A DNA stretch of 64,000 nt. Source: Mycobacteriales bacterium. Lineage in GTDB: Bacteria; Actinomycetota; Actinomycetes; JAFAQI01. Location of the stretch: positions 27,504 through 91,503 of the forward strand of contig DASSEX010000028.1 of the NCBI GenBank assembly GCA_035695045.1. The letters are read 5' to 3'. The notes under the pieces were generated by a model. It did not search any database. It had not been told where the DNA came from and saw only the letters and a list, made by a program, of their open reading frames with translations. Below are positions 1,275 to 62,948 of this stretch, in pieces. The position numbers and the translations under genes were made by a program. Numbering within the stretch: position 1 is the stretch's first letter; every line of letters starts with the position of its first letter.

Positions 1275-2387
1275 TCAGACCTTGGGGATCGAGCCGTAGC
1301 CCTCGACGGCATCGACCCCGCGGTTGGCCGGGCCGACGTACTTGGCGGACGGCCGGATGAGCCGGCCGGTGCGCTTCTGCTCGAGGATGTGCGCGCTCCA
1401 GCCCGCGACGCGCGCGCACGCGAACATCGACGTGAACATGTGCGCGGGAACCTCGGCGAAGTCGAGGACGACTGCCGACCAGAACTCGACGTTGGTGGCG
1501 AGCACGCGGTCGGGGTAGCGCTCCTTGAGCTCGGCGAGCGCCGCCTGCTCGAGTGCGTCCGCGATCTCGACGCGAGGCGATCCGAGCTCCTTCGCCGTAC
1601 GCCGCAGGACGCGGGCGCGTGGGTCCTCGGCGCGGTAGACGCGGTGACCGAAACCCATCAGCCGCTGCTTGGAGTCCAGGAGCCGCTTGACGTAGCGGCG
1701 GGCGTCGCCTTCCTCGGCAACCTCGTCGAGCATCCTCAGCACGCGGGAGGGCGCGCCGCCGTGCAGCGGGCCCGAGAGCGCACCGATCGCGCCGGAGAGG
1801 CAGGCCGCGACGTCGGCGCCGGTCGAGGCGATGACGCGCGCGGTGAACGTGGAGGCGTTCATGCCGTGCTCGGCCGCGGACACGAAGTAGGCGTCGACGG
1901 CCTTCACGTGCGCCGGGTCGGGCTCACCGCGCCAACGGACCATGAAGCGCTCGACGATCGTGTCGCTCTCGTCGATGCGCTTCTGGGGGACCATCGGCTG
2001 GCCGAGACCGCGAGCGGACTGCGCGACGAACGACATCGCCGTGACGGAGCACCGGGCCAGGTCGTCGCGCGCCTGCTGGTCGTCGATGTCGAGCAGCTGC
2101 TCGAGGCCCCATGCCGGGGCCAGCGTCGCGAGCGCGCTCTGCACGTCGACGCGGATGTCACCGGAGTGCACCGGGACCGGGAAGGGCTCGGCGGGCGGCA
2201 GGCCCGGGGCGAAACGACCGTCGACGAGAAGGCCCCAGACGTTGCCGTAGGACACGCGTCCGACGAGGTCCTCGATGTCGACGCCGCGGTAGCGAAGGGC
2301 CGAGCCCTCCTTGTCGGGTTCGGCGATCTCGGTCTCGAAGGCGATGACGCCTTCCAGACCGGGCTTGAACACAGTCTCGTCCGCCAT
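1275..2387 (-). CDS. citA: citrate synthase 2 (CitA-type)
   Basis: Start ATG at 2387 ([25 protein letters not shown]...), 370 aa. Citrate synthase signatures GPLHGGA and LMGFGHRVY are present. The longer tracked ORF (to 2729) is an unlikely extension. Confidence 0.9.
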
Positions 2388-2499
2388 TGCGAGTGCGTCT
2401 CCTCGTGCGGTGGCAGGGATCACTGCCCGTGGACCGCGGGTACTGGGCTGCGGTGACCTCATTGTCCCCCGCAACGGGGCGCCTGAGACAGTCAGGGTG

Positions 2500-3171
2500 A
2501 TGGATCGTCCCGCCGACCCCGCCCGGATCTCCCAGGCGGACCTCGCCGCGATGCGCAGCGAGTACGCGGATGCCGGACTCACCGAGGACGGCGTACCTCC
2601 CCACCCGGTGCTGCTCTGGCACGAGTGGCTCGCGGCCGCCCGGGACGCCGCGCTCGCCGAGGTCAACGCCATGGTGCTGTCGACCGTGGACGGCGCCGGT
2701 GCGCCGAGCAGCCGGATGGTGCTGTGCAAGTACGCCGACGAGGCGGGATTCGTCTTCTACACGAACTACGACTCGCGCAAGGCCGCCGAGATCGACGCCA
2801 ACCCGCAGGTGAGCCTGCTCTTTCCGTGGCACCCGCTCGGGCGGCAAGTGCGCGTCGAGGGGGTGGCTGCTCGCGTCGCCGAGGAGGAGTCGGCGTCGTA
2901 CTTCGCCACCCGCCCGCGCGGTGCCCAGATCGGCGCGTGGGCGAGTCACCAGTCGTCCGTCATCCAGTCGCGCGCGGATCTCGAGCGGGACGTCGCTGCC
3001 GTCGTCGAACGGTTCGGCGAGGGCGACGTGCCGCTGCCTCCGCACTGGGGCGGCTATCGCGTACGGCCCGAGCGGGTGGAGTTCTGGCAGGGCCGTCCGG
3101 ACCGGCTGCACGACCGGCTGCGCTACGTCCGCGCCCCCGACCGCTGGCGGATCGAGAGACTGTCGCCGTGA
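2500..3171 (+). CDS. pdxH: pyridoxamine 5'-phosphate oxidase
   Basis: ATG at 2500 ([19 protein letters not shown]...). Motifs [32 protein letters not shown] and [25 protein letters not shown] are typical of PdxH. Confidence 0.9.
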
Positions 3172-4488: not shown

Positions 4489-5772
4489 ATGTCCTCCTAT
4501 GAGCTCCGGTACGACGACGAGTCGCTGCCTCTCGAGACCGTCGACGGCACTGAGCCACCGTTCGGCGTACACATCGGCAAGCTGCTCTCCACGACCGGCC
4601 GGGTGACGTTCGACCCCGGCTACGGCAACACCGCGCCTTCGGTGTCGGCCATCACGTTCATCGACGGTGACGCCGGCATCCTGCGCTACCGCGGATATCC
4701 GATCGAGCAGCTGGCGGAGAGCTCGACGTTCCTCGAGACGTCGTACCTTCTGATCTGCGGCGAGCTGCCGACGAAGGAGCAGCTGGCGGACTTCGAGCAG
4801 CGGATCAAGACGCACACGCTCCTGCACGAGGAGTTCAAGAGCTTCTTCGCCGGGTTCCCGCGCGACGCGCACCCGATGCCGGTGCTCGCGTCGGCGGTGA
4901 GCGCGCTGTCGACCTTCTACCAGGACAGCCTCGACCCCTTCGACGAGGAGCACGTCGAGCAGTCGACCGTTCGTCTGCTCGCGAAGGTGCCGACGATCGC
5001 CGCCTACGCCTACAAGAAGGCGGTCGGCCAGCCGCTGCTCTATCCCGACAACTCGCTCGGGTACGTCGAGAACTTCCTGCGCATGTGCTTCGGCGTGCCG
5101 GCGGAGCCCTACGAGGTCGATCCCGAGGTCGCGAAGGTTCTCGACATGCTGTTCATCCTGCATGCCGACCACGAGCAGAACTGCTCGACGTCGACGGTGC
5201 GGATGGTCGGCTCGTCGCACGCCAACCTGTTCGCGTCGATCTCCGCCGGCGTCAACGCCCTGTTCGGTCCACTGCATGGTGGCGCCAACCAGGCCGTCCT
5301 GGAGATGCTCGAAGGCATCCAGGCCGACGGCGGCGATGTTGCGGCGTTCGTCCGGCGGGTCAAGGACAAGGAGCCGGGCGTCAAGCTCATGGGCTTCGGT
5401 CACCGTGTCTACAAGAGCTTCGACCCGCGCGCGGCCGTCGTGAAGAAGGCAGCCCGTGACGTGCTCGAGAAGATGAACAAGCCTGACCCGCTGCTCGACC
5501 TCGCGATGCAGCTCGAGGAGGTCGCGCTCGCCGACGACTACTTCGTCGAGCGCAAGCTCTACCCGAACGTCGACTTCTACACCGGCGTCATCTACAAGGC
5601 GATGGGCTTCCCGACGCGGATGTTCACGGTGCTGTTCGCGCTCGGCCGGTTGCCCGGCTGGATCGCCCAGTGGCGGGAGATGATGGCCGACCCGTCGACG
5701 AAGATCGGCCGGCCGCGCCAGGTCTACACCGGCCCCGGCGAGCGCAAGTACGTCGCCCTCAACGACCGCTGA
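4489..5772 (+). CDS. gltA: citrate synthase (type II, GltA)
   Basis: 427 aa. Contains ITFIDGDAGILRYRGYPIEQLAE, HADHEQNCSTSTVR, GPLHGGANQ and [10 protein letters not shown], which are canonical hexameric-type citrate synthase motifs. Confidence 0.95.
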   Translation: MSSYELRYDDESLPLETVDGTEPPFGVHIGKLLSTTGRVTFDPGYGNTAPSVSAITFIDGDAGILRYRGYPIEQLAESSTFLETSYLLICGELPTKEQLADFEQRIKTHTLLHEEFKSFFAGFPRDAHPMPVLASAVSALSTFYQDSLDPFDEEHVEQSTVRLLAKVPTIAAYAYKKAVGQPLLYPDNSLGYVENFLRMCFGVPAEPYEVDPEVAKVLDMLFILHADHEQNCSTSTVRMVGSSHANLFASISAGVNALFGPLHGGANQAVLEMLEGIQADGGDVAAFVRRVKDKEPGVKLMGFGHRVYKSFDPRAAVVKKAARDVLEKMNKPDPLLDLAMQLEEVALADDYFVERKLYPNVDFYTGVIYKAMGFPTRMFTVLFALGRLPGWIAQWREMMADPSTKIGRPRQVYTGPGERKYVALNDR

Positions 5773-5781
5773 GCCTGTGTT

Positions 5782-5837
5782 GAGTGCGACGTAATCCCCC
5801 TAAGTGGGCGTCGCCCAAGGGGGATTACGTCGCACTC
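5782..5837. terminator. 56-nt near-perfect palindrome between convergent genes (likely bidirectional intrinsic terminator)
   Basis: Arm gagtgcgacgtaatccccct (5782-5801) is the exact reverse complement of agggggattacgtcgcactc (5818-5837). The 16-nt centre contains a nested palindrome, tgggcg-t-cgccca. It lies between the gltA stop (5772) and the stop of the minus-strand gene at 5862. There is no U-tract. Confidence 0.6.
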
Positions 5838-5861: not shown

Positions 5862-7790
5862 CTACTGGACGATGAGCGTGCCCTTCATGCCTGGGTGAAG
5901 GGTGCACAGGAACGAGTAGGTCCCGGGCTTGAGTGAGCTGACGCCGAGCACCTCCTCTGTCTGGCTCAGACCGATCAGCGGCGAGTAGAACAGTGGGCAC
6001 TGGTGCTTGCGGAACTGCCGGCACCATTTCGCCTTGCCGCTCGTCAATGCCTTGTGGTCCGCGGCGACGTCCTGTACGACGTTGTGCCGTACGACGTCGA
6101 AGTTGGCGTACTGCAGCTTGCCGCCGCGCTGCACCACCATGAGCGGCGTCGCATAGCCGTAGGACTGTGCCTGCGGCAGCGAGACGACCGTGGACTCCGC
6201 GTTCGGTGCCGCCGACGTCGGCGACGCCGCCCGAGACCCCGGCAGCGCGATGCCCGGCCGGTAGGCGATGACGTAGCCGTTCGGCAGACCGGTCATGCCG
6301 ATCGCCGCGTAGACCGTGTGCCGGGCGATGGCGACCCCGCCCCAGCTCGCCGCGACGTCACCGGCGCCGACGTCGGCACCCATCCAGTGGTGCAGCAGCG
6401 GCACGCCGGTCGCGCTGTCGTAGGCGTCGAGGAAGCCGGTCAGACCCACCGTGTAGACGATGCCGGCGGCCGTGGACACCGGGTTGCCCCAGTGCGCACC
6501 GTCGCCGATCGGTGCCACCCAGCGCGGTGTGCCGCTCGCCCGGTCCAGCGACCAGAGGTAACCGCTGATCGTGATCGGCCCGTAGACGCTCTTGCCGTCG
6601 TACGCCGTCGAGCCGACGATGCCGCCGACTGCACTGGGCGGACCCACCGGGGTCTGCCAGACGCTCTTCATCGTGCGGCCGTCGATGAGGTGGTAGTAGC
6701 CGGACTTCTGCCCGGCGCCGACGAGCACCCGGTTACCCGTGCGGATCAGGTTGGGCGAAGCGCCGAAGTCCATGTCCATGTCGGCACAGGAACCCACGCC
6801 CGTCGGGTAGTAGGGCGCCGGGTTTCCAGGAATGTCGACGCACGGCGTGCCCTGAAACGCCGTCGTGTAGGTCTCGGGTGTGCCGTCGTAGGTGCCGATG
6901 ATGTCGCCGAAGGTGCGGCTGTGCCGGTCGAGATCGACCTTGATGACGGCGTCGGCGTTCCTCGCAGGCACGTTCTCGTGGAACGGGTTGCCGGTGCCGA
7001 CGTAGGCGACCTTGGCCCTGGTGTCCACGGCAGGGGTCGACCACACGGTCGCCCCGCCCTGCTTGGCGTTCTTCGCCGGCTTCTGGACGGTGTAGACCTT
7101 CTTCAGGACGCGGCCGGCCTGTGCGCCGCGGGTCTCGATCAGGACGTAGGCGCCCTGGAACGCGTAACGCTCCGACTCCGAAGCCAGCTCAGCCGAGCCG
7201 CCCGACACGCCCTCGAACAGCACACCGTCGAACACGACCGGGCTGCCGTAGGCGTCCGCACCGTTCTGCGAGTCGGTGATGGTCTCCCAGCGCACCTTGC
7301 CGGTGCGCTGGTCGAGCGCGGCGACGTACGGCTTGCCTATGCGTCCCACCGCGACGAAGACCTGGCCCTCGGCGACGGTCGGCGACGAGGTGATCTCGTT
7401 ACCGTCCTTGTCGACCTTCGTCGACCACACCTTCTGCCCGGTGTCGGCGTTGACCGCGAACACCCAACCGGTCGTCGAGCCGATGTACATGCACCCGCCG
7501 GCGATGACCGGCGTGCCGGTGAAGTCGCCGTCGCCGCCGCCGTCCTTCGCCGAGAACGCCCATGCCTTGGTCAGGGTCGGGACGACGGTGGTCGTCAGCG
7601 TCTTCTCCGCCGGCTGGGAGCGGGTGTTGGAGGAGTCATGCCCGTACGATGGCCAGTCGCCGCCGGGCTTCGCGGGGGAGGCGCATGAGGCGGGTCGCGC
7701 CGCCGCACCGGCTGACGTGAGAGCGCCGGCGGCAGGGGCGACGAGAGCGACCGCAGCCATGACCGGCAGTAGGCGGCGCGACCCGAGCAT
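5862..7790 (-). CDS. secreted PQQ-type beta-propeller repeat protein with C-terminal cupredoxin (type-1 copper) domain
   Basis: Start ATG at 7790 (MLGSRRLLPVMAAVALVAPAAGALTSAGAAA, a signal peptide). WPSYGHDSSNTRSQP is followed by repeated A-x-D/N-x-x-T-G-x-x-x-W blades (AVNADTGQKVWST, ALDQRTGKVRWET, LIDGRTMKSVWQT, SLDRASGTPRWVA). The C-terminus ...VVRHNVV...GTYSFLCTLHPGMKGTLIVQ carries a His/Cys/His/Met blue-copper ligand pattern. The tracked ORF (to 8303) overextends into the upstream gene. Confidence 0.8.
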   Translation of the reverse strand: MLGSRRLLPVMAAVALVAPAAGALTSAGAAARPASCASPAKPGGDWPSYGHDSSNTRSQPAEKTLTTTVVPTLTKAWAFSAKDGGGDGDFTGTPVIAGGCMYIGSTTGWVFAVNADTGQKVWSTKVDKDGNEITSSPTVAEGQVFVAVGRIGKPYVAALDQRTGKVRWETITDSQNGADAYGSPVVFDGVLFEGVSGGSAELASESERYAFQGAYVLIETRGAQAGRVLKKVYTVQKPAKNAKQGGATVWSTPAVDTRAKVAYVGTGNPFHENVPARNADAVIKVDLDRHSRTFGDIIGTYDGTPETYTTAFQGTPCVDIPGNPAPYYPTGVGSCADMDMDFGASPNLIRTGNRVLVGAGQKSGYYHLIDGRTMKSVWQTPVGPPSAVGGIVGSTAYDGKSVYGPITISGYLWSLDRASGTPRWVAPIGDGAHWGNPVSTAAGIVYTVGLTGFLDAYDSATGVPLLHHWMGADVGAGDVAASWGGVAIARHTVYAAIGMTGLPNGYVIAYRPGIALPGSRAASPTSAAPNAESTVVSLPQAQSYGYATPLMVVQRGGKLQYANFDVVRHNVVQDVAADHKALTSGKAKWCRQFRKHQCPLFYSPLIGLSQTEEVLGVSSLKPGTYSFLCTLHPGMKGTLIVQ

Positions 7791-8350
7791 CAGGACACCT
7801 CGATCTTGCTGAAGTGGATGGTTCCTACATCCGCGTTCGGACAGGCACTCGACTGCTGGAGACCGAACTCGACGACGAGGGTCTTCGGGAACGGTCCCTC
7901 CGGCATGTACGGCCTCAACCCGACAGTGCCCGAACCCGTGACCGCGCCACGGACGGTCTTCAGGCCGTACCAGTGGTGGTTGCCCTTCGCGGTGTCGCGC
8001 AGTCCGAGCTGCACGAAGGTGAACGGGTCGACCGCCGCCGAGTCGTACGTCGCCACGACCTTGTGCACCGCGCGCGTCGCACGGAACACGACGAGCAGCT
8101 TCGCGTAGGGCGCGCCCTTGGTGCAGTTGATGACTCCGGGGATCGGGTAGATCCGCCCGACCGTCACGGTGCCGTCCGAGGTGGCGGAGTGGTAGCTGAA
8201 GGAGTCGCCGCCGGATGGACCGAGCTTGAACGGCGCTCCGTAGCTCTTGCTCTTGGCCGGAGCGGCGCCCGCAGGCAGGGCGACGACGAGCGCGGCGGCA
8301 CAACCGGCTGAGGCGAGCAGACGTAGAACGCGCGGCATGCGGCTCCTCAT
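7790..8350 (-). CDS. small secreted protein of unknown function
   Basis: Start ATG at 8350 overlaps the stop of the upstream gene (ATGA at 8347-8350). Its own stop overlaps the downstream ATG (ATGA at 7788-7792). N-terminal signal peptide MRSRMPRVLRLLASAGCAAALVVALPAGAAPA. Two further Cys residues. I recognise no motif. Confidence 0.65.
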   Translation of the reverse strand: MRSRMPRVLRLLASAGCAAALVVALPAGAAPAKSKSYGAPFKLGPSGGDSFSYHSATSDGTVTVGRIYPIPGVINCTKGAPYAKLLVVFRATRAVHKVVATYDSAAVDPFTFVQLGLRDTAKGNHHWYGLKTVRGAVTGSGTVGLRPYMPEGPFPKTLVVEFGLQQSSACPNADVGTIHFSKIEVS

Positions 8351-10182
8351 GGCGTGAACGGCGCGTTGGGCCACGTGTTGGCGAGCATCGCGGCGCGGGT
8401 GCGGAAGGCGGGCATCTTGTTCGTCGCGAACGGCCGCACCTCGTTCGGCGTCGCCGGGTTGATCAGGTAGCCGTCGCGGATCTTCTGCACGTCGTCGCAG
8501 TGGATCAGCTTGCGCTGCGCATCCGGGTCGACCTTGTAGACCACGGCTGCGTTGCGTCCGAAGATGTGGTTGCGGATCGTCCGCTCAGGGTGCGCCTTGT
8601 GGTCCGTCGGCCAGTCCTTGATGTGCTTGTGCGGAGCGCGATAGTTGTGCGGGCTGAGCGCGTTGACCCGCGGGTCCCACGCGTCGCCGTCCAGACCGAA
8701 GGGCAGGTTGTAGAACTCCTTCGCGCGCTGGGTGAAGTGCAACGAGCGCAGGCCGGTGATGATCGGCTGCGGCGAGCCGAACCACAGGCTGTCCGTGCCC
8801 CACGCGATCCGACGCGGGCCGACGTACGTGATCAGCTTGCCGAGCAGGTGGGTCGCCTGGTCCGGGTCACCGAGCACCGACTTCATGGTCGAGCCGATCT
8901 CGGCGTAGACGTTCGGCACGTTGCCGTGCTCGAGGCCGTGCGGGATGAAGTGGGAGGCGTCCCAGGCGTTCTCGCGCAGGCTCTTGATGAAGCAGTCGAC
9001 GCCGCGGTCGGCGGAGTTGACCTTGTCGTCGCCGGGGTAGGCGGTCTGCGTCTCGCTGTCGAAGCCCGAGTGGTAGACGACGAAGTGGATGTCGGGGTTC
9101 TGCCGCGCGGCCGGGCCGATGTCGCGCGGTGAGGCCGCACGGTGGTCGAAGGCGGGCAGCGCGAAGCCCTTGTGGCAGGCGATGACCGGCGGGCCGCCGA
9201 TCTTCGTCAGCTTGCGCACCTGGTCGATGAACGCCATGCCGATCTCGTCGTCGAGGAACCAGCCGCTCGCGTACGGCACGTCGCCCCACGGGGTGTAGAC
9301 CTTCCAGCCCCGCAGCGCCTTGTGGAAGCTGCGGACGTGCTGCTCCATCAGGTCGAACTCGGCCTGCTGGTAGACCGGCCGCTGGTTCTTCGCATAGGGC
9401 TGGATGCCGTAGGAGCCGCGGTTCGGCATCGCGAACGCGTGCATCACAGCGCGCTGCGTCCCGCCGGCGAGGTGGTTGACGACGTTGACCGTGTCGTAGG
9501 CCTCGGGCGTCGGCAGCGGCTGTTGCGACTCTTCGGAGGGGACGCACGACAGCACGGTCATGTTGGTCGACGAGTCGAGGTAGAGCGTCTTGAGGTAGTG
9601 GTAGCGCGACAGGTTCTCGATCGGGTCGATCTCGCCGCCTTGCCCGAAGCCGTAGATGTGGCCGTCGGACCCGACGTGCGGCTCGCCGCCCAGCGGGCCG
9701 GACTGCGTCCACAGCGCCATGAAGGCCGCATGCACGCCTGGGTTGTTGATCCGCCAGGCGGCCGTGCTCGACGAGTCGACGTGGTGCGTCTGGACGTCGA
9801 AGATGAACTCGCCGGGCAGGTTGTTGAGCTGCGCCTCCGGATACTCCAGAGCGCACGCGTCATCACCGATGGGTCCGCCGCCGGCCGCCTCGCCGATGCC
9901 GGCGCCGGGCAGGTAGCGCCCCCACTTGCCTGGCATGACCTGGTTGATCGCCCAGAAGCCGACACCGATGGCGCTCGCGCTGCGCACGAACGTCCGGCGG
10001 GAGAGTCCCATCTTGTGCCGGACCTCTTCGGCGCGTTCGTCCTGCAGCCGCATCACCTGCAACTGCTGCTGAGTCGGCGGCGGCGGGATGAACTCGCCGT
10101 TCGACGCCGGGAGGACGTCGACCGGCATCCGCTCCGACAGCGTCGACCACCGGTCGAGGTGCCGACGTACCCAATCCGTCAT
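8347..10182 (-). CDS. Tat-exported amidohydrolase-family (TIM-barrel metal hydrolase-like) protein
   Basis: 611 aa. ATG at 10182 lies 7 nt after AGAGGAGA. Twin-arginine motif SRRTFVRSASAIGVGFWA at residues 61-78. Segments FDVQTHHVD, IACHKGF, VVYHSGF and IAWGTDSLW resemble amidohydrolase_2-type metal ligand positions. Confidence 0.6.
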   Translation of the reverse strand: MTDWVRRHLDRWSTLSERMPVDVLPASNGEFIPPPPTQQQLQVMRLQDERAEEVRHKMGLSRRTFVRSASAIGVGFWAINQVMPGKWGRYLPGAGIGEAAGGGPIGDDACALEYPEAQLNNLPGEFIFDVQTHHVDSSSTAAWRINNPGVHAAFMALWTQSGPLGGEPHVGSDGHIYGFGQGGEIDPIENLSRYHYLKTLYLDSSTNMTVLSCVPSEESQQPLPTPEAYDTVNVVNHLAGGTQRAVMHAFAMPNRGSYGIQPYAKNQRPVYQQAEFDLMEQHVRSFHKALRGWKVYTPWGDVPYASGWFLDDEIGMAFIDQVRKLTKIGGPPVIACHKGFALPAFDHRAASPRDIGPAARQNPDIHFVVYHSGFDSETQTAYPGDDKVNSADRGVDCFIKSLRENAWDASHFIPHGLEHGNVPNVYAEIGSTMKSVLGDPDQATHLLGKLITYVGPRRIAWGTDSLWFGSPQPIITGLRSLHFTQRAKEFYNLPFGLDGDAWDPRVNALSPHNYRAPHKHIKDWPTDHKAHPERTIRNHIFGRNAAVVYKVDPDAQRKLIHCDDVQKIRDGYLINPATPNEVRPFATNKMPAFRTRAAMLANTWPNAPFTP

Positions 10183-10209
10183 GCCACTGTCTCCTCTGGG
10201 ATCAACAGG

Positions 10210-12225
10210 TCAGCCGACGACCTTGAAGGCGCCACGCATGCCGGGGTGAATCCGGCAGAAGAACGTGTAGACGCCGTCGCGAGTCGGGGTGAACGTCCAG
10301 TAGATGCCGTTCTCCATCCACTGCTGGTCGTAGGGCTCGCTGCCGCCGACCTGCGACTTCGAGGGCTCGAAGAGCATGCCGAAGCCGATCTCCATCGACT
10401 CGAAGTTCATCGCGTCGCCGGCACTGCCGTTGCCACCGTCGGCCACCGGATAGTTGACCGACGTCGGGCCGCTGCAGGGATATCTGCACGCGGTGAACGT
10501 GTGGTAGACCTTCGAGCTCGCGTCGAGGTTCCAGAACCGGACCGGCGTTCCGCGCTGGACCGTCGGGATGCCGGTCGCTCCGATGACACCCTGGTCGGCC
10601 TGGCCGTAGGTGAAGCCGGCGGCATAGATGTCGGTGACCATCTGGCCGGTCTTGTTCGTCAGCGGCGGACAGGTCTGCTTCGTGCACGGCGGCGACGTGT
10701 CCTGGTTCTCCTTCAGCGCGCCGTGTGTGACCTGGCCGTGCAGGCACAGGACCTTGTGCGGGCCGGTCAGGCTGGGGTGGCACACCTTCGGCCGGTAGTT
10801 GAAGACGAACGGGCCCTTCGGCAGCTTCGCCTGCGCGGCAACACCGTCCACGATCTTCACGTGGTCGTTGAAGACGTCGACGCCGGGCGGGCCGTGCGGG
10901 TCCTTCGGCGCGATGTAGCCGACGACGATGCCCATGTTCTCGTACCAGGACGAGATCTGGTTGTCGTAGACCGCGTTGAGCCGGATGATGTCGCCGGCCT
11001 TGACCTTCACCTTCCAGTCGAGCGGCGCTCCTGTGACGGTCATGGAGAAGTCCCACGACGTCGGCGGGCCACCCGCCCGCGATGGGTTGGTGTGGCTCCA
11101 GTTGACGGCGTCGGAGTCGAAGATCGGCTTCTGCACACCGTGGCGCACCAGGCTCACCTCGTCGCGGATGCCGCCCGGGTGCAGATGGCCACCGAGGCCG
11201 ATGATCGTGCCGGCCATGTCCGGCGTGACCTTGTAGTCGGCGCCCGCGATGTCGGTGTGCAGCTTCTGTTCGGAGATGCCCTGCTGCGGTGACTTGTGGC
11301 CGTAGACGTCGAAGTTGGCGCAGTTCTCATCCGGCCAGGTGCACACGTGGTGATGTGTGAGCGGGTCGATGTGGCCGAAGCCGCGCTGCACGTTGAAGAC
11401 CGGGTTGGCGCCGGTGCTCGGCGCACCCTTGTAGATCGCCTGGCGCTGCACGTCGAGCCACAGGGGCTTGGCCTCGACGATGCCCTGCTTCTCGGCGGAT
11501 GCCTGCGGCACGAAGTCGATGTCGTAGGTCAGCCACACCGTGTCCGGGTTGGCCTCGGCGTCGTGAACCATGTAGAGCAGGCCCCACGCGTCGTTCTGAC
11601 CGACGTGCATGCCGTAGCCGGTCGGGAAGTCGGCGATCGTCTTCTCCTCGCCCGCGGCGAAGAACGGGCCGGACCCGTAGGACTGGCCGAGGTTGAGCCA
11701 TGTCGCGTGGTGGAGGTGGAGCTGCTCCACCGGCGGGACCGACCCGTCGCTCGCGCGCACGAGACCCGGCAGGAAGCGGACGATGAAGCCGTCGTACCGC
11801 GGCTGCTCGATCGTCGTCGGCCGCAGCATCGCGTCGTTCATGCCCGGCCGCACGTTGATCGGCCCGAACGCGAAGTGGATCCGCTTGCAGTCCTTGTAAC
11901 GATGCGCGTTGACGTAGCTGCCCTCGTAGGGGTTCGTCGGCGTGCATGCGTCGCCCGGCACCTGCTGGATGAACGCCGGGTCCGGGTGCGGTGGCGGTGC
12001 GGTCGGTGCGTTGTAGATCTGGTGGTCCGGCCCGATGATCACCGTGTGCGCTGGACCGGTCGTCGGCAGGAACGTGCCCCCCGTGGCGACGGGCTGGAAG
12101 TACTGACGCACACCGGGTGAAGCCGTCGCGGCTCCGACGACTCCCGTGCCGGCGACCACCATGAGGGCGCAGCCCCACATGAGCGCGCGGTGAGCGGTGC
12201 GGGCAGGCTGCGGCCACATCGACAT
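10210..12225 (-). CDS. secreted protein with PHM/DBH-like copper monooxygenase pattern, Cys-rich linker and C-terminal cupredoxin domain
   Basis: 671 aa. ATG at 12225 follows GGAGGA. Signal peptide present. Ordered ligand-like pattern LHLHHATW (H172/H173), LLYMVHD (H221), GGHLHPGG (H347/H349) and WYENMGIVVGY (M431). C-terminal VYHTFT ... YTFFCRIHPGMRGAFKV gives type-1 Cu ligands. Confidence 0.65.
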   Translation of the reverse strand: MSMWPQPARTAHRALMWGCALMVVAGTGVVGAATASPGVRQYFQPVATGGTFLPTTGPAHTVIIGPDHQIYNAPTAPPPHPDPAFIQQVPGDACTPTNPYEGSYVNAHRYKDCKRIHFAFGPINVRPGMNDAMLRPTTIEQPRYDGFIVRFLPGLVRASDGSVPPVEQLHLHHATWLNLGQSYGSGPFFAAGEEKTIADFPTGYGMHVGQNDAWGLLYMVHDAEANPDTVWLTYDIDFVPQASAEKQGIVEAKPLWLDVQRQAIYKGAPSTGANPVFNVQRGFGHIDPLTHHHVCTWPDENCANFDVYGHKSPQQGISEQKLHTDIAGADYKVTPDMAGTIIGLGGHLHPGGIRDEVSLVRHGVQKPIFDSDAVNWSHTNPSRAGGPPTSWDFSMTVTGAPLDWKVKVKAGDIIRLNAVYDNQISSWYENMGIVVGYIAPKDPHGPPGVDVFNDHVKIVDGVAAQAKLPKGPFVFNYRPKVCHPSLTGPHKVLCLHGQVTHGALKENQDTSPPCTKQTCPPLTNKTGQMVTDIYAAGFTYGQADQGVIGATGIPTVQRGTPVRFWNLDASSKVYHTFTACRYPCSGPTSVNYPVADGGNGSAGDAMNFESMEIGFGMLFEPSKSQVGGSEPYDQQWMENGIYWTFTPTRDGVYTFFCRIHPGMRGAFKVVG

Positions 12226-12316
12226 GCGGAGGTCCTCCGTCGGAACGGGACAGGGCTACGCAGGCGTCGTCTGGGGTCCGGCCTGTGGTGGAGGTTCGAT
12301 AGAAGCGGTAGCGATT

Positions 12317-12333
12317 CCTTCCGGCAAGGAAGG
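12317..12333 (-). terminator. small hairpin in the AT-richer copC / monooxygenase spacer
   Basis: ccttcc-ggcaa-ggaagg (6-bp stem) lies about 50 nt after the copC stop, in the only clearly lower-GC stretch of the cluster (12226-12382). It could be a terminator or an operator. Confidence 0.3.
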
Positions 12334-12382
12334 TTCGTCCGTAATTTCGGCAGAAACTCGTCGGAAAAGTTTGTGACGTCGT

Positions 12383-12994
12383 TCAGTGACGCATCAGAAC
12401 GTGCGCACGTGCTGACCCTGTGTCGACAGGCTCGGCGCGGTAGGGGTCGGTGGCGAGGGCGCGGACCGCGCCCAGACCTCGTACGGCGACCAGCGCAGCG
12501 CCGAGTACGGCGACGCCCGCCATCACTGCCGCGACGATGACCGGCCAGGTGGGCTGAGCCGGCGCGGGCAGGGCGGAAGCGAATCCGGTCAGAGCGGCCC
12601 CTGTAGATCCAGGGGCGCCGACGGCGAAGCCGAAGACGCCGCTCTCGACGTGCCCGTCGTCGGAGAGGATCCGCCAGCCGACGAAGTAGCGCCCGGCCGG
12701 GAGTCGCCCCGGCACGGACGCCTCGAGCGTCTTGCCGCCGACGACGCGCGGAGCACCGATGGGTTCCGGCGCACCCGTCGCGCCACTCACGACGAGGGAC
12801 CGCGGCACGAGCCGCACCGGGTCGTCGAACACGACGCTGACGACACTGATCCGGCCGCCGATCGTCGCGCCGTTCGCCGGCGTCGTACGGATGACACGCG
12901 CATGAGCCTGTGCCGGTCCGGCGGTGAGGACCACGGAGAAGAGCGCTCCACCTACGGCGAGAGCCGAGCGCGCGATGCGACCCACACGTGTCAT
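12383..12994 (-). CDS. copC: CopC-domain copper-binding protein with C-terminal membrane anchor
   Basis: Start ATG at 12994 overlaps the copD stop (ATGA). Signal peptide ends AQA, then HARVIRTTPANGATIG gives the N-terminal His of mature CopC. GRYFVGWRILSDDGHVESG is the typical CopC beta-sandwich end. A C-terminal TM helix follows. Confidence 0.85.
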   Translation of the reverse strand: MTRVGRIARSALAVGGALFSVVLTAGPAQAHARVIRTTPANGATIGGRISVVSVVFDDPVRLVPRSLVVSGATGAPEPIGAPRVVGGKTLEASVPGRLPAGRYFVGWRILSDDGHVESGVFGFAVGAPGSTGAALTGFASALPAPAQPTWPVIVAAVMAGVAVLGAALVAVRGLGAVRALATDPYRAEPVDTGSARAHVLMRH

Positions 12995-13971
12995 GCCGCA
13001 ACCGGGTTCTGTCGCAAGAGGACCTCCGTGACGACCAGGACAGCGATCAGCCCGATCTGCTCGATGGCGACGTTCATCCTCAACGCAGCAAGTGCTGAAA
13101 CGTCGCCGGCGGCCGCAGGGCGGACATGCCGAAAGTGATTGGTCGCGGACACCACGAGCATCGCTGCGACGAGACCGACCTTGATGATGAGCACCTGGCC
13201 GTACGCCGTCGACACCAACGCGTGCCAGGAGGAGACGTAGAGCGCGGCGAGCCCGACACCGCCGGCGAGCAGCATGACGATGACGCCGGTCATCAGCCCG
13301 GCGAACGTCACGAGCACGTGGGTGCGACGAGCCGGATCGACCGTGTGTCGATGCAGGGTCACACCCAGACCGGCGAGCCCGCCCACCCACGCGCACGCCG
13401 CAACGACGTGCGCGAACAGGCAGACCAGCACGACGAGTGTCGGACCGTGACTGCGTGCGTGGCCGGCCAGGAGGAAGCTGCCACTGACCAGAGCCCCGCC
13501 GCCGAACATCAACAGTCGCCGCGACGTCGGCGTGAGTCGCACGACGGAGAACGCTGCGGCCACCAGACAGAGGCCGGCGCATCGAGCCAGCGCGGTCTCG
13601 TATGCCGCGCCGCGCAGGACGGCGTCTCGCGCCAAGCCGCTGCCCAGGCCGCGCAGGCCCTCTCCTGCCACGTCCATGACGGAGAATGCGACGGTCAGCA
13701 ACGTTGCGGCGAAGCCGGCGATCGTGGCCTGCCGGACGGCGGCTCCCCACCACACCTGGCCGTCGGTCGGATCGCCGAGCAGCGCGGTGAAGAACGCCAG
13801 TCCGGCGGCAGCCACCGCGCAGACGAGAGCCACCCCCTCGACGGCGTACAGGCCGAAGGGCGGAACCGCCAGAGACGCGGCCAGCAACGACGTGGCGAGC
13901 AGCAGCCCGACATTGCGCAGCGCCGCCGGAGGCAACCGCAGCGCCGGCGCCTCGACGGGTAGCTCGGCCAT
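12991..13971 (-). CDS. copD: CopD-family copper transport membrane protein
   Basis: 326 aa, about 8 TM helices. His-containing helices (LAGHARSHGP, LFAHVVAACAW) are translationally coupled to copC, the classic copCD arrangement. Confidence 0.8.
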   Translation of the reverse strand: MAELPVEAPALRLPPAALRNVGLLLATSLLAASLAVPPFGLYAVEGVALVCAVAAAGLAFFTALLGDPTDGQVWWGAAVRQATIAGFAATLLTVAFSVMDVAGEGLRGLGSGLARDAVLRGAAYETALARCAGLCLVAAAFSVVRLTPTSRRLLMFGGGALVSGSFLLAGHARSHGPTLVVLVCLFAHVVAACAWVGGLAGLGVTLHRHTVDPARRTHVLVTFAGLMTGVIVMLLAGGVGLAALYVSSWHALVSTAYGQVLIIKVGLVAAMLVVSATNHFRHVRPAAAGDVSALAALRMNVAIEQIGLIAVLVVTEVLLRQNPVAA

Positions 13972-17041: not shown

Positions 17042-17824
17042 ATGAGCGACTACCCCACCTCGATCGGCACGGCCGATGAGCACTCCATCACGCTGCTGGG
17101 CAAGGACCTGCCCGGTGAGCTGCTCGGTCAGATCGGTTTCGCCGAGCTCGCGTTCTGGCTCGTTGCGCTGCGTCGGCCCACTGCCAGGCAGCTGCGGATG
17201 TTCGAGGCCGTCCTCGTCGCGCTGGCCGACCACGGGTTCACGCCGACCGCGATCGCGGCGCGCCTGACGCTGCTCAGCGCCCCGGACTCGTTGCAGGGAG
17301 CGCTGGCGGCAGGCATCCTCGGCGGCGGCTCGCGCTTCCTCGGGGTGACGGAGGACGCCGGCATCTTCCTGGCCGGCGCGCTGATGCGTCGCGGCGATGC
17401 GCTCCCCGGCGATCCGGCCGGTTGGGACGACCTCGCTCGTGAGGTGGTGACCGAGACACGCGCGGCCGGCCGCTTCGTCCCGGGTCTGGGTCATCCGCTG
17501 CACAAGTCCGGTGACCCGCGGACGCCCGTGATCTACCGGATCGCCGACGAGGAGGGCGTGCGCGGCCCGCATCTCGAGCTGTTCGCTGCCATCGGCCGGG
17601 TGCATCCCGAGATCCTGGGTCGGACCCTTCCTCTCAATGGCGCCGGAGTCTGCGGCGCAGCCCTCGCCGACCTCGGCCTGCCACCGGAGCTCCTCCGGGG
17701 GTTCGCGCTGCTTGCGCGAACTGCCGGCCTGCTCGGTCATCTCGCGGAGGAGATGCGCCGGCCGATCGGCATGCAGGTCTACGACGCCGTGGACCGGTCG
17801 GCCCACTACCTCCCGCCGGGCTGA
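17042..17824 (+). CDS. short citrate-synthase-fold protein (citryl-CoA lyase-like)
   Basis: 260 aa. PGLGHPLHKSGDPR corresponds to the citrate synthase GFGHRVYK active-site segment. LADHGFTPTAIAAR and ARTAGLLGHLAEE match the C-terminal domain only. Confidence 0.7.
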   Translation: MSDYPTSIGTADEHSITLLGKDLPGELLGQIGFAELAFWLVALRRPTARQLRMFEAVLVALADHGFTPTAIAARLTLLSAPDSLQGALAAGILGGGSRFLGVTEDAGIFLAGALMRRGDALPGDPAGWDDLAREVVTETRAAGRFVPGLGHPLHKSGDPRTPVIYRIADEEGVRGPHLELFAAIGRVHPEILGRTLPLNGAGVCGAALADLGLPPELLRGFALLARTAGLLGHLAEEMRRPIGMQVYDAVDRSAHYLPPG

Positions 17825-17827
17825 CCG

Positions 17828-18601
17828 TCAGGTCGCGGTGCCGACCGCGACGACCTTGGTCGGTTGCGTCGGCACCTGGTCGGCCCGCTCGACGCTCATC
17901 GCGAAAGCGGCGGTGTCGTCGTAGGGGATCGCCAGTGACACAGAGCGGCCGGCCTTCGATGTTGCGATGTCGGGCAACGCCGTCACCGGCGTCGGCCTGC
18001 CGTCGCGTGGCATCTGCCAGAGCACATACACGTGCGACGCATCGAGTGCGGGCATCGCCGTCGGCACGACTGAGGCTGATCCGCCTCGGACGAGGACGTC
18101 TCCCGCTTCGACCTTGCCCTCGGCGAGCAGCCGGACGACATGGCATCCGGGGCTGCTCTTGCACGCCGCGACCGCGCTCGGCACGCCGCCGGAGCCGTGG
18201 GATCGGCTCGTGACCTGCCAGCCGGCGACTCCGATGCCGATGAGGCCGACGACCGCAGCCGCTGCCGCGAGCAGCCGGGCGTGTCGCCTCCGCATCTGCA
18301 GCACGACACCGTCCGCCGGCGGCGCAGGCGAGGGTTGCGGCTGTCGGGACTCGGAGCGGTCCGGCGCTGTCGCGATGACCGGGCGGATGCGTGACCACGG
18401 CGGCGCCGCCGTCGCCGCGTCGTCAGCGAGCGATGCGAGCTGGGCCGCCACGAGTGAGTGGTCGTCGAGGGTCTGCTGGCAGGTCTGGCAGCCGGCGAGG
18501 TGGCTCGTGAAGATGGCCTCGTCGTCGGGTTCGAGCGCGTGCAAGGCGTACCCCGCCGCCAGCTCCGCCCAGTGGGCGTCGTCGTGCGAAGCGCCGCTCA
18601 T
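17828..18601 (-). CDS. anti-sigma factor (zf-HC2 N-terminus, single TM, RskA-like extracytoplasmic domain)
   Basis: 257 aa. HLAGCQTCQQ (H-x3-C-x2-C), TM helix LLAAAAAVVGLIGIGVAGW, and a C-terminal YVLWQMPRDGRPTPV pattern. Its ATG overlaps the sigma gene stop (ATGA at 18598-18601). Confidence 0.8.
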   Translation of the reverse strand: MSGASHDDAHWAELAAGYALHALEPDDEAIFTSHLAGCQTCQQTLDDHSLVAAQLASLADDAATAAPPWSRIRPVIATAPDRSESRQPQPSPAPPADGVVLQMRRRHARLLAAAAAVVGLIGIGVAGWQVTSRSHGSGGVPSAVAACKSSPGCHVVRLLAEGKVEAGDVLVRGGSASVVPTAMPALDASHVYVLWQMPRDGRPTPVTALPDIATSKAGRSVSLAIPYDDTAAFAMSVERADQVPTQPTKVVAVGTAT

Positions 18602-19185
18602 GACCGCCCTCCTTCGGCAGGGTCGTCGCCTTCGATGCCGGCCAGCCGGTCGCGCATTCGTCGCATCGCGCCGAGGGTGCGGCTCTTGACCGTCCCGAGA
18701 GGCAGACCGGTCATGTCGGCGATCTCGCGCTGCGTGTAGCCGCCGTAGTAGGCGAGCAGCAGCACCTCACGCTGCTCGGCCGGCAGAGTGCGCAGCGCCT
18801 CGCGAGTGCGCTCAGCACGCCACCGGGCCCATGCCTCGTCGTCCGGCCCCGGTCCTGCGGCGGCCTTCTCGAGCAGGGCCTGGTCGCTGGCGATACGCCG
18901 CCGCCGGTTGCCCTCACGCCGGACCGAGTCGACGGCCTTGTGGTGCGTCATCGACAGCAGCCAGGTGCTGACGGCGCCACGGCGAGGGTCGTATCCGGTG
19001 CCCTGCCAGAGCGCGAGGAACACCTGCTGTACGACGTCCTCGGCGAGCTGGGCGTCGTCGATGATGCGTCGGGCGAGGCGGTAGCAGGCTCCGCCGTACC
19101 GCTCGTAGAGCGTCTCGATGGCAGATTCGTCGCCGGTGCCCACACGTTGCAGCAGCACGGCATCTTCGAGCGCCGCGGGGCTCAT
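18598..19185 (-). CDS. ECF RNA polymerase sigma factor (SigK-like)
   Basis: Start ATG at 19185 follows AAGGAGAGCG. It has region 2 (DVVQQVFLALWQ, STWLLSMTHHKAVD) and region 4 (LLLAYYGGYTQREIADMTGLPLGTVKSRTLGAMRRMR). Confidence 0.85.
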   Translation of the reverse strand: MSPAALEDAVLLQRVGTGDESAIETLYERYGGACYRLARRIIDDAQLAEDVVQQVFLALWQGTGYDPRRGAVSTWLLSMTHHKAVDSVRREGNRRRRIASDQALLEKAAAGPGPDDEAWARWRAERTREALRTLPAEQREVLLLAYYGGYTQREIADMTGLPLGTVKSRTLGAMRRMRDRLAGIEGDDPAEGGRS

Positions 19186-19228
19186 GGCGTCGCTCTCCTT
19201 CCGCATCGATCGGGTCCGCATGCAACAT

Positions 19229-19270
19229 GTTCGCCCCCGGAAGCGAAACGGATCGCTTCCGGGGGCGAAC
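19229..19270 (-). terminator. perfect 18-bp stem hairpin upstream of the sigma gene
   Basis: gttcgcccccggaagcga (19229-19246) pairs exactly with tcgcttccgggggcgaac (19253-19270), with a 6-nt loop. It lies 43 nt upstream of the sigma start codon and 95 nt after the lipoprotein stop. Confidence 0.55.
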
Positions 19271-19305
19271 GGTGGCGCATGGCGCCGGCGCGGGGGGCCG
19301 GCAGC

Positions 19306-19349
19306 CAATCGCCACATGTCGGCCATCTATGGCCGGGATATGGCGATTG
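19306..19349 (-). terminator. 44-nt imperfect palindrome just after the lipoprotein stop
   Basis: Structure is caatcgcca-catgt-cggccat-ct-atggccg-ggata-tggcgattg: a 9-bp outer stem, a 5x5 internal loop and a 7-bp inner palindrome. It starts 16 nt after the stop at 19365. Confidence 0.5.
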
Positions 19350-21920: not shown

Positions 21921-21987
21921 TAGCCGCGGACTCCGACGGTAGCGGGTTGCGGGCCGGCGCTGCAGGAAAATGATCACACCCGTTCGG

Positions 21988-22060
21988 TGCCCCCGGCAGG
22001 ATTCGAACCTGCGGCACACGGTTTAGGAAACCGTTGCTCTATCCCCTGAGCTACGAGGGC
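21988..22060 (-). tRNA. tRNA-Arg (anticodon CCT)
   Basis: Reverse complement is GCCCTCGTAGCTCAGGGGATAGAGCAACGGTTTCCTAAACCGTGTGCCGCAGGTTCGAATCCTGCCGGGGGCA. It folds as a cloverleaf with a 7-bp acceptor stem, anticodon stem ACGGT/ACCGT, loop TTCCTAA and a GGTTCGAATCC T-arm. CCA is not encoded. Confidence 0.9.
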
Positions 22061-62872: not shown

Positions 62873-62948
62873 GGGGCTGTAGCGCAGTTGGTAGCGCGCT
62901 TCGTTCGCATCGAAGAGGTCCGGGGTTCGACTCCCCGCAGCTCCACCA
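62873..62948 (+). tRNA. tRNA-Ala (anticodon CGC), CCA encoded
   Basis: Sequence is GGGGCTGTAGCGCAGTTGGTAGCGCGCTTCGTTCGCATCGAAGAGGTCCGGGGTTCGACTCCCCGCAGCTCCACCA. It has the G3:U70 identity pair, anticodon loop TTCGCAT and T-loop GGTTCGA. Confidence 0.9.

Follow-up and report, generated by a model that had tools for sequence, protein, structure and literature searches.

Predicted extracytoplasmic copper redox module in uncultured Actinomycetota: a PHM-like core and a beta-propeller, each with a type-1 cupredoxin domain

The window analysed in this study is a 64,000-nucleotide stretch of a Mycobacteriales genome (contig DASSEX010000028.1) with a GC content of approximately 0.69. Six co-directional open reading frames (ORFs) were present on the minus strand at 5862-13971; they encode CopD, CopC and four further proteins, designated G3, G4, G5 and G6 (Table 1), whose possible joint redox function is the subject here. 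Hydropathy analysis showed N-terminal hydrophobic segments in G3, G5, G6 and CopC and multiple transmembrane (TM) segments in CopD, and G4 has a twin-arginine translocation (Tat) motif. From these signal, TM and Tat features, that is, from hydropathy and motifs only, all six products are predicted to be exported or membrane-bound. This agrees with the first-pass annotation of the sequence, which had placed six consecutive genes with export features at these coordinates. Its ATGA coupling of copD and copC (12991-12994) and its 27-nt gap between the G3 stop (10210) and the G4 start (10182) were also found at the nucleotide level. The ATGA overlaps that it gave for the last three genes exist at the G4/G5 junction (8347-8350), but the G5/G6 junction is TGATG (7788-7792), with an overlap of 1 nt. 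G5 is translationally coupled both to G4 and to G6.

Table 1. Features of the gene cluster and their positions in the window
Feature	Position	Strand	Description
copD	12991-13971	-	326 aa, polytopic membrane protein
copC	12383-12994	-	203 aa, Sec signal and C-terminal TM anchor
copC-G3 spacer	12226-12382	-	157 nt
G3	10210-12225	-	671 aa, predicted PHM/DBH-fold core and type-1 cupredoxin
PHM-like core of G3	10792-11952	-	aa ~92-478; Foldseek matches and conserved putative ligands
Cys/His-rich stretch of G3	10624-10905		aa ~441-534
Cupredoxin domain of G3	10210-10590	-	aa ~546-671; ligands H575, C657, H660, M663
G4	8347-10182	-	611 aa, twin-arginine motif and predicted ACMSD-type amidohydrolase-superfamily TIM barrel
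Pre-signal peptide of G4	10009-10182		aa 1-58
Twin-arginine motif of G4	9982-10002	-	S61-R-R-T-F-V-R67
G5	7790-8350	-	186 aa, secreted protein without family
G6	5862-7790	-	642 aa, signal peptide, PQQ-ADH-like beta-propeller and type-1 cupredoxin
Beta-propeller of G6	6246-7682	-	aa ~37-515; PQQ-type repeats
Cupredoxin of G6	5865-6161	-	aa ~544-642; H-N-V ... C-T-L-H-P-G-M
Hairpin	5782-5837	.	perfect 19-bp stem between the convergent G6 and citrate synthase genes

G3 comprises a signal or anchor segment (aa 14-36), a Pro-rich linker, a two-domain core with the predicted fold of animal peptidylglycine alpha-hydroxylating monooxygenase (PHM) and dopamine beta-hydroxylase (DBH), a connector and a cupredoxin domain. 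The AlphaFold2 model of G3, built from 63 sequences, had a pLDDT of 80.8 and a pTM of 0.81. The Foldseek search of the PDB with this model showed that the 31 best matches were all PHM or DBH (probability 1.0, E 1e-9 to 1e-6), and the model contains two jelly-roll subdomains in the PHM arrangement. The target-normalised TM-score (TMt) was 0.41-0.54 for the PHM entries and 0.27-0.30 for the larger DBH chains. The matches that followed were the nitrite reductase NirK (6hbe) and a multicopper oxidase (9cck), both with a C-terminal cupredoxin.

Residues H170, H172, H173, H221, H347, H349 and M431 of G3 were 100% conserved in 78 orthologues sharing 36-95% identity, and the putative copper ligands were likewise invariant in alignments A1 and A3. 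M395 was conserved in 95% of the orthologues. The CuH ligands of PHM are H107, H108 and H172 (PMC6123673), and the family has been formulated as CuM(His)2 / CuH(His)3 (PMC2988203). The G3 pattern HH..H / HxH..M equals that of PHM. By this residue pattern, H172, H173 and H221, which sit on adjacent predicted strands of the model, would be the CuH ligands together with H170, and H347, H349 and M431 the putative CuM ligands. The model and the pattern suggest that G3 is PHM-like in fold and ligand set and probably a very distant PHM homologue outside the curated family.

No Pfam or NCBIfam family matched G3. Its family comprises at least 1433 clusters at 90% identity, which are annotated at most as 'plastocyanin' and of which none has a Pfam domain. 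A profile of the PHM-like domain alone retrieved 1149 representative clusters at E <= 1e-3 among 1.84 billion proteins; the ten that were looked up were all metagenomic. The exact G3 sequence of the window had no record in the contig collection. SURNod19 (PF07712) gave weak matches in 5 of 63 relatives (best E 0.0098), and the alignment inspected covered only 38 residues (E 0.23), so this assignment was rejected. Plant Nod19 is a protein without known function (PMC3882225).

The C-terminal domain of G3 has the short amicyanin-type loop C-x2-H-x2-M, and its type-1 ligands were kept in 72 of 75 complete orthologues, which bears out the fused type-1 copper site proposed at first. The G3 profile matched amicyanins in the PDB at E 0.014-0.08. 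The Copper-bind and Cupredoxin_1 models gave weak, sub-threshold matches in 25 and 21 of the 63 G3 members, respectively, and the domain is assigned as a type-1 cupredoxin by its ligand set. Between the core and the cupredoxin lies a Cys/His-rich connector (aa ~479-545) with invariant C482, C494, H501, C514 and C519 and a GQVTHG motif; it matched no fold or family. The connector may serve as a spacer stabilised by disulfides, or it may provide a further site for a metal or for electron relay.

G6 is a fusion of a beta-propeller and a type-1 cupredoxin, as the first-pass annotation had described it. The repeat models PF01011 (E 2.9e-17, 63 bits) and PF13360 (E 9.6e-15, 55 bits) assigned to it an eight-bladed propeller with repeats of the pyrroloquinoline quinone (PQQ) type, and PF00127 (Copper-bind) matched above its cut-off (E 6e-5, 23.8 bits against 21.2). 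Both the hidden Markov model (HMM) and the ligands therefore place the C-terminal domain of G6 among the type-1 cupredoxins. The loop C-x2-H-x2-M was found in 62 of 65 partner cupredoxins. Among the deviating loops, the partner cupredoxin of L059 (26-349) reads C-F-Q-H-A-I-Q, with Gln at the axial Met position as in stellacyanin, and that of L062 (6466-6831) has the longer loop C-E-P-H-K-T-A-M. These deviations hint at tuning of the redox potential within the family. In the G6 propeller, C100, C317 and C335 are invariant and C36 is nearly so, and no conserved His cluster was found. The best natural full-length relative of the propeller profile in the PDB was tetrathionate hydrolase (E 2e-23), preceded by designed repeat proteins only, and BamB was the strongest match of the single sequence. 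Because the PDB matches are dominated by designed 'Cake' repeat proteins and BamB, the profile is useless for mapping cofactor residues.

These folds could also be read as structural. The G3 core would then be a non-catalytic double jelly-roll of the PNGase F or carbohydrate-binding type, the propeller a BamB-like scaffold, and the whole an envelope structural or binding complex. PHM and PNGase F belong to one clan and share a fold, PHM being placed in eukaryotes and PNGase F in bacteria (PMC8812541); the BamB match of G6 and the lack of HMM support for a monooxygenase point the same way. We nevertheless consider this explanation improbable. PNGase F was not among the 50 Foldseek matches listed for G3, the PHM and DBH entries stood at the top, and the exact PHM pattern, with its six His and one Met, does not vary in orthologues down to 36% identity. 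Moreover, electron transfer rather than binding is indicated, because there are two conserved type-1 copper sites.

The scan of one genome per species gave 78 loci with the module, all of them in metagenome-assembled genomes (MAGs). The loci span Actinomycetes, Acidimicrobiia and Thermoleophilia, and the carriers were Mycobacteriales/Frankiaceae, unclassified Actinomycetota, Acidimicrobiales and Thermoleophilia/Solirubrobacterales; one locus was binned as Burkholderiales. The locus nearest to the window was L004, from a Mycobacteriales MAG (95% identity). Synteny was counted in the 50 loci with at least 6.5 kb downstream of G3. G3 was followed by G4 in 45 of these, by a propeller in 43 (and in 5 more the propeller lay elsewhere in the locus) and by a cupredoxin in 45; all three were present in 42, and G5 in 18. 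Because the order G3-G4-(G5)-propeller-cupredoxin is kept in 42/50 distant loci, the arrangement is far beyond chance, and the co-conservation for which the first-pass annotation had proposed a check was found.

G3 and the G6-type propeller co-occurred in 48/50 loci. The propeller and its cupredoxin were fused in 32 loci and encoded by separate adjacent genes in 8, and in L037 and L052 G6 directly follows G3 without G4. One natural protein, P0247 (L087, 3394-7029), is a single ORF of 1211 aa that comprises a complete G3 (41% identity) and a complete G6 (46% identity) with both type-1 sites kept; no G4 or other amidohydrolase gene was found near it. P0247 lies on a 20-kb Logan contig, where it adjoins a phage-type integrase gene and an RHS-repeat gene. 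The evolutionary core of the system is G3 with the propeller and the cupredoxin; G4 is a frequent accessory, G5 is clade-specific and CopCD is a local addition. A physical and functional interaction of G3 and G6, the coupling proposed at the outset, is supported by its classical genomic signatures: both are predicted to be exported and carry type-1 copper domains, one of them has a PHM-type binuclear site, the two co-occur, the cupredoxin is fused to or split from the propeller, and one protein joins G3 and G6 in full. We lean towards the view that G3-G6 form an extracytoplasmic copper redox module, in which an ascorbate-independent PHM-type monooxygenase is wired to a partner redox protein via cupredoxins.

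The all-versus-all clustering of ORFs from 81 loci, aimed at conserved neighbours such as regulators, cytochromes or chaperones, showed nothing beyond this core in more than approximately ten loci. Five distant loci, among them L003 (5785-9841) and L085 (5781-9636), encode a copper radical oxidase similar to glyoxal oxidase (Glyoxal_oxid_N and GO-like_E_set, 600-679 aa) immediately upstream of G3 and in its orientation, with two unannotated genes of approximately 355 and 320 aa alongside. The system may be extended in these loci by an enzyme that produces H2O2.

The same G3-G6 coupling would also fit a terminal oxidase. G6 would oxidise an extracytoplasmic substrate such as an alcohol, aldehyde, sugar or sulfur compound, G3 would only reduce O2 to H2O2 or H2O at its binuclear copper site without hydroxylating an organic substrate, and G4 would act on what G6 produces. 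PHM-type enzymes are capable of uncoupled turnover with H2O2 release, the glyoxal-oxidase-like neighbour hints at H2O2-linked chemistry, and tetrathionate hydrolase is the best natural full-length relative of the G6 propeller profile in the PDB. This reading seems unlikely to us, although it deserves more weight than the structural one. The CuM Met and many residues lining the core are strictly conserved, which suggests a specific substrate site, and multicopper oxidases are the usual route for reducing O2 to water.

G4 was proposed at first to be a Tat-exported amidohydrolase. R62, R63, F65 and R67 of its Tat motif were invariant in 55 homologues, and G4 is predicted to be exported by the Tat route. 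PF04909 (Amidohydro_2) matched G4 at 21.5 bits, below the cut-off of 26.4, and NCBIfam gave nothing; most G4 orthologues carry precomputed PF04909 matches. H133, H134, H248, H337, H371 and D464 were invariant in the same homologues. The AlphaFold2 model (pLDDT 71.9) gave as its best Foldseek matches isoorotate decarboxylase (IDCase, 4lak, E 2.6e-5), gamma-resorcylate decarboxylase (2dvu) and the hydratase LigJ (6dwv), down to E 2.6e-4. The Tat motif is in place and a TIM barrel of the ACMSD type is predicted, but a role as an amide hydrolase is not established and some loci have no G4. Residues 1-58, which precede the Tat motif, are strongly conserved (consensus LPVDVLPxSNGEFxPxxPT), with D22, P25, S27, N28, G29, E30 and M44 invariant in the 55 homologues and an AlphaFold pLDDT of 76-92. 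Tat n-regions do not usually include such a conserved stretch of 58 aa ahead of the motif. The peptide may bind a chaperone, or it may form the cytoplasmic tail of a signal anchor that stays uncleaved.

G5 matched no Pfam or NCBIfam family. The alignment of 22 orthologues showed a conserved GPSGGD motif and a Cys76/Cys170 pair. It contained no conserved His or Met, and G5 is for this reason not an obvious copper protein. A function as a copper chaperone was rejected, there being no conserved His, Met or free Cys.

CopD (PF05425, E 1.3e-14, 54.9 bits) and CopC (PF04234, E 8.7e-17, 62.4 bits) were confirmed by their Pfam models above the cut-offs. The NCBIfam equivalog cut-offs were not reached, CopD matching NF033808 at E 1.3e-17 below its cut-off. 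The mature N-terminus of CopC is the His that follows AQA. CopCD was found beside the module in only 3 of the 78 genome loci (L004, L005 and L007, all of the clade of the window) and in the near-identical contigs L082-84. CopCD is therefore a lineage-specific accessory outside the conserved core, and the earlier proposal that it supplies copper as an integral part of the system was not upheld. The same distribution bears on a reading of the whole cluster as a copper homeostasis or resistance locus, in which, as in cop/pco systems, CopCD and the periplasmic copper proteins would serve to buffer copper, to oxidise it or to traffic it. CopD and CopC do lie directly upstream in the same orientation, and four products are known or plausible copper binders. 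However, we regard this reading as very unlikely, because CopCD is absent from 75/78 loci; in L002, UDG abuts G3 with no CopCD between them. CopA/CopB, CsoR/CopY and P-type ATPase genes were not found near the cluster of the window, and a PHM-type site and an amidohydrolase barrel are foreign to known cop systems.

The copC-G3 spacer contains blocks that are conserved in the Frankiaceae-like clade (CACAAA, ACCTyCCTTGCsGG and CCCAG) and a GGAGGA ribosome-binding site. The short inverted repeat TTCCTTGCCGGAAGGAA is present in the spacers of the window, L004 and L082; L005 and L007 have a truncated form of it. The spacer showed no sigma-70 consensus, and the scan for consensus promoters and terminators gave no useful result. 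On its sequence features, the 157-nt spacer is probably the promoter/operator of G3-G6, independent of copCD. At the other end of the cluster, the hairpin at 5782-5837 has a nested GC stem within its long stem (-57.4 kcal/mol, z = -8.5, 0/200 shuffles as stable) and is unique in the window. It has no U-tract, and we therefore only infer that it acts, as is probable, as a bidirectional terminator closing the operon.

As noted in the first-pass annotation, no regulator or cytochrome gene was found in the unit, which is flanked by UDG, NlpC/P60, citrate synthase and MFS transporter genes. At 17828-19326, 4 kb from the cluster, lie the coupled genes for an ECF sigma factor of 242 aa and for an anti-sigma-K factor of the RskA type (257 aa). 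Three citrate-synthase-family genes are present in the window (1275-2729, 4489-5772 and 17042-17824), the last being a truncated 260-aa ORF that adjoins the sigma pair. The sigma/anti-sigma pair, UDG, NlpC/P60 and citrate synthase were rejected as parts of the system, being syntenic only within the close clade. Rfam showed no riboswitch or other RNA near the cluster; the only Rfam/ARAGORN matches in the window were tRNA-Arg(CCT) at 21986-22060 (-) and tRNA-Ala(CGC) at 62873-62948 (+).

In the copper redox module that we favour, G3 would be membrane-tethered or secreted, with CuH (H172/H173/H221) accepting electrons and CuM (H347/H349/M431) binding O2 and the substrate. The type-1 cupredoxin of G3 would deliver two electrons per turnover, as ascorbate does in animal PHM/DBH. 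The G6 propeller would oxidise a substrate, and the G6 cupredoxin would pass the electrons to that of G3. G4, exported by the Tat route and presumably metal-loaded, would convert the oxidised carbonyl product by hydrolysis, decarboxylation or hydration, and CopCD would improve copper provisioning in the lineage of the window.

In the simplest closed scheme, G3 would hydroxylate a C-H bond and G6 would then dehydrogenate the alcohol or carbinol, which would return exactly the two electrons required; the net reaction would be R-CH2-R' + O2 -> R-CO-R' + H2O. G3 and G6 would then be a self-contained extracellular C-H oxidation machine of a type so far undescribed, a prokaryotic PHM-type binuclear copper monooxygenase with a two-cupredoxin wire, in which the propeller re-oxidises the hydroxylated product of G3 without ascorbate, NAD(P)H or a cytochrome and the exported ACMSD-type enzyme then cleaves the product. 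Its users would be abundant uncultured soil Actinomycetota, and the extracellular substrates could include N-acyl peptides and peptides ending in glycine, or aromatics from lignin or humic matter, oxidised at their benzylic positions. We put this closed loop forward tentatively, as a possibility that is less likely than the module itself.

Several results weigh against the monooxygenase-dehydrogenase reading. The Cu2_monooxygen and Cu2_monoox_C models did not match the G3 of the window or any of the 63 family members, even at E <= 10, and the PDB sequence profiles of G3 never reached PHM, giving only the amicyanin-level matches at the C-terminus and spurious DARPin ones. Because neither the Pfam HMMs nor the PDB profiles give a PHM match, the homology of G3 to PHM rests on the predicted structure. 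The first-pass annotation had reported a PHM/DBH-like His/Met pattern and had made it depend on HMM or structure searches finding a copper monooxygenase; the pattern proved complete and the structure search returned the fold, but the Cu2_monooxygen HMMs were silent.

The propeller raises similar doubts. G6 scored 97.6 bits with TIGR03075 (PQQ alcohol dehydrogenase), far from the cut-off of 480. Its profile matched PQQ alcohol dehydrogenase (PQQ-ADH) and XoxF at approximately E 1e-20 with only positions ~15-250, the N-terminal half, aligned, and the PDB search with residues 251-440 found no quinoproteins. The vicinal Cys-Cys disulfide next to PQQ is a requirement of the methanol/ethanol dehydrogenase type, and there is no CC dipeptide in the G6 sequence. 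The propeller is equally close to tetrathionate hydrolase, which is not a quinoprotein, and to BamB. Given the half-length quinoprotein alignment, the absence of vicinal Cys and this equal closeness, the dehydrogenase activity of G6 is unproven, and the PQQ-type dehydrogenase named in the first-pass annotation was not established. The invariant D339-x-D341..N347 of G6 was considered as the catalytic/lanthanide Asp motif of XoxF, but this found no support, since the 251-440 search gave only YncE and surface-layer propellers (E 0.03). No pqq genes were found in the flanks inspected. For G4, the nearest structures scored weakly (E 2.6e-5, TMt ~0.45) and belong to C-C lyases and a hydratase, the conserved neighbours give no clue to the substrate, and there was no cultured carrier among the genomes found. 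Overall, the first observation of this cluster was confirmed, and its interpretation was supported in part.

Full-text searches of the literature found no description of the cluster. With no family model for G3 or G5, this supports the view that the G3-G6 cluster is new and undescribed, as had been supposed. PHM, DBH and tyramine beta-monooxygenase (TBM) are the textbook non-coupled binuclear copper monooxygenases and are treated as eukaryotic and ascorbate-dependent. G3 would represent a large bacterial family with the same fold and ligand set, an attached blue-copper donor and a genetically fixed redox partner. The CuH-CuM gap in PHM-type enzymes is roughly 11 Å. The module would be a natural system for protein-mediated electron delivery to CuH that can be tracked by spectroscopy, which bears on the long-debated path by which electrons reach and cross this gap. 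It would also give uncultured soil Actinomycetota, which are widespread, a means of extracellular oxidation that has so far gone unrecognised, and it would offer a handle for predicting the function of the G3 and G5 families, neither of which has a Pfam or NCBIfam model.

Among known systems, PHM, DBH and TBM (PF01082/PF03712) share with G3 the predicted two-domain jelly-roll, the conserved residue pattern HH + H / HxH + M and the predicted extracytoplasmic location. PAL, the second enzyme of PAM, which completes the reaction there, is a loose parallel to G4. G3 differs from PHM in having no detectable sequence or HMM similarity to it and in being bacterial (Actinomycetota MAGs), PHM being regarded as eukaryotic (PMC8812541). 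It also has an additional His two residues before HH, the Cys/His-rich connector and the fused type-1 cupredoxin, and a protein redox partner is proposed in place of ascorbate. The NirK of Thermus scotoductus (6hbe) and the multicopper oxidase of Nitrosopumilus (9cck), which also appear in the sequence-profile matches of G3, have a type-1 cupredoxin tethered to a copper catalytic core, as G3 does. Their cores are cupredoxin domains with T1/T2 or trinuclear sites, whereas the G3 core has the predicted PHM fold.

The ACMSD-branch amidohydrolases (PF04909), which act on C-C bonds, by cleavage or hydration, and not on amides, have in common with G4 a TIM barrel, which is predicted for G4, and a set of invariant His/Asp residues. 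Compared with them, G4 is approximately 250 residues longer and has the Tat motif and the conserved pre-signal peptide; where the HxH motif normally begins with His, G4 appears to have Gln (DVQ-x-HH).

In NosZ, a beta-propeller is followed by a cupredoxin, which is the domain order of G6. However, the NosZ propeller binds CuZ via seven His and its cupredoxin is of the CuA type, whereas G6 is without the His cluster and has a type-1 cupredoxin. A propeller that hands electrons to a small cupredoxin is known from methylamine dehydrogenase-amicyanin and from PQQ-ADH/XoxF, which use cytochrome or azurin acceptors, and the short C-x2-H-x2-M loop in the cupredoxins of both G3 and G6 is of the amicyanin type. 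Compared with these quinoproteins, G6 usually has its acceptor fused, its C-terminal half does not align, it has no vicinal disulfide and its score is far below the cut-off; its proposed electron sink is a monooxygenase, not the respiratory chain. The partners of the fungal lytic polysaccharide monooxygenases (LPMOs) offer a further comparison. LPMO systems differ in their mononuclear histidine-brace site, in their cytochrome b carrier and in that their components are not operon-linked. In these systems, an extracellular dehydrogenase, either cellobiose dehydrogenase or the AA12 PQQ pyranose dehydrogenase, feeds a copper mono-oxygenase with no small-molecule reductant, as is proposed here for G6 and G3.

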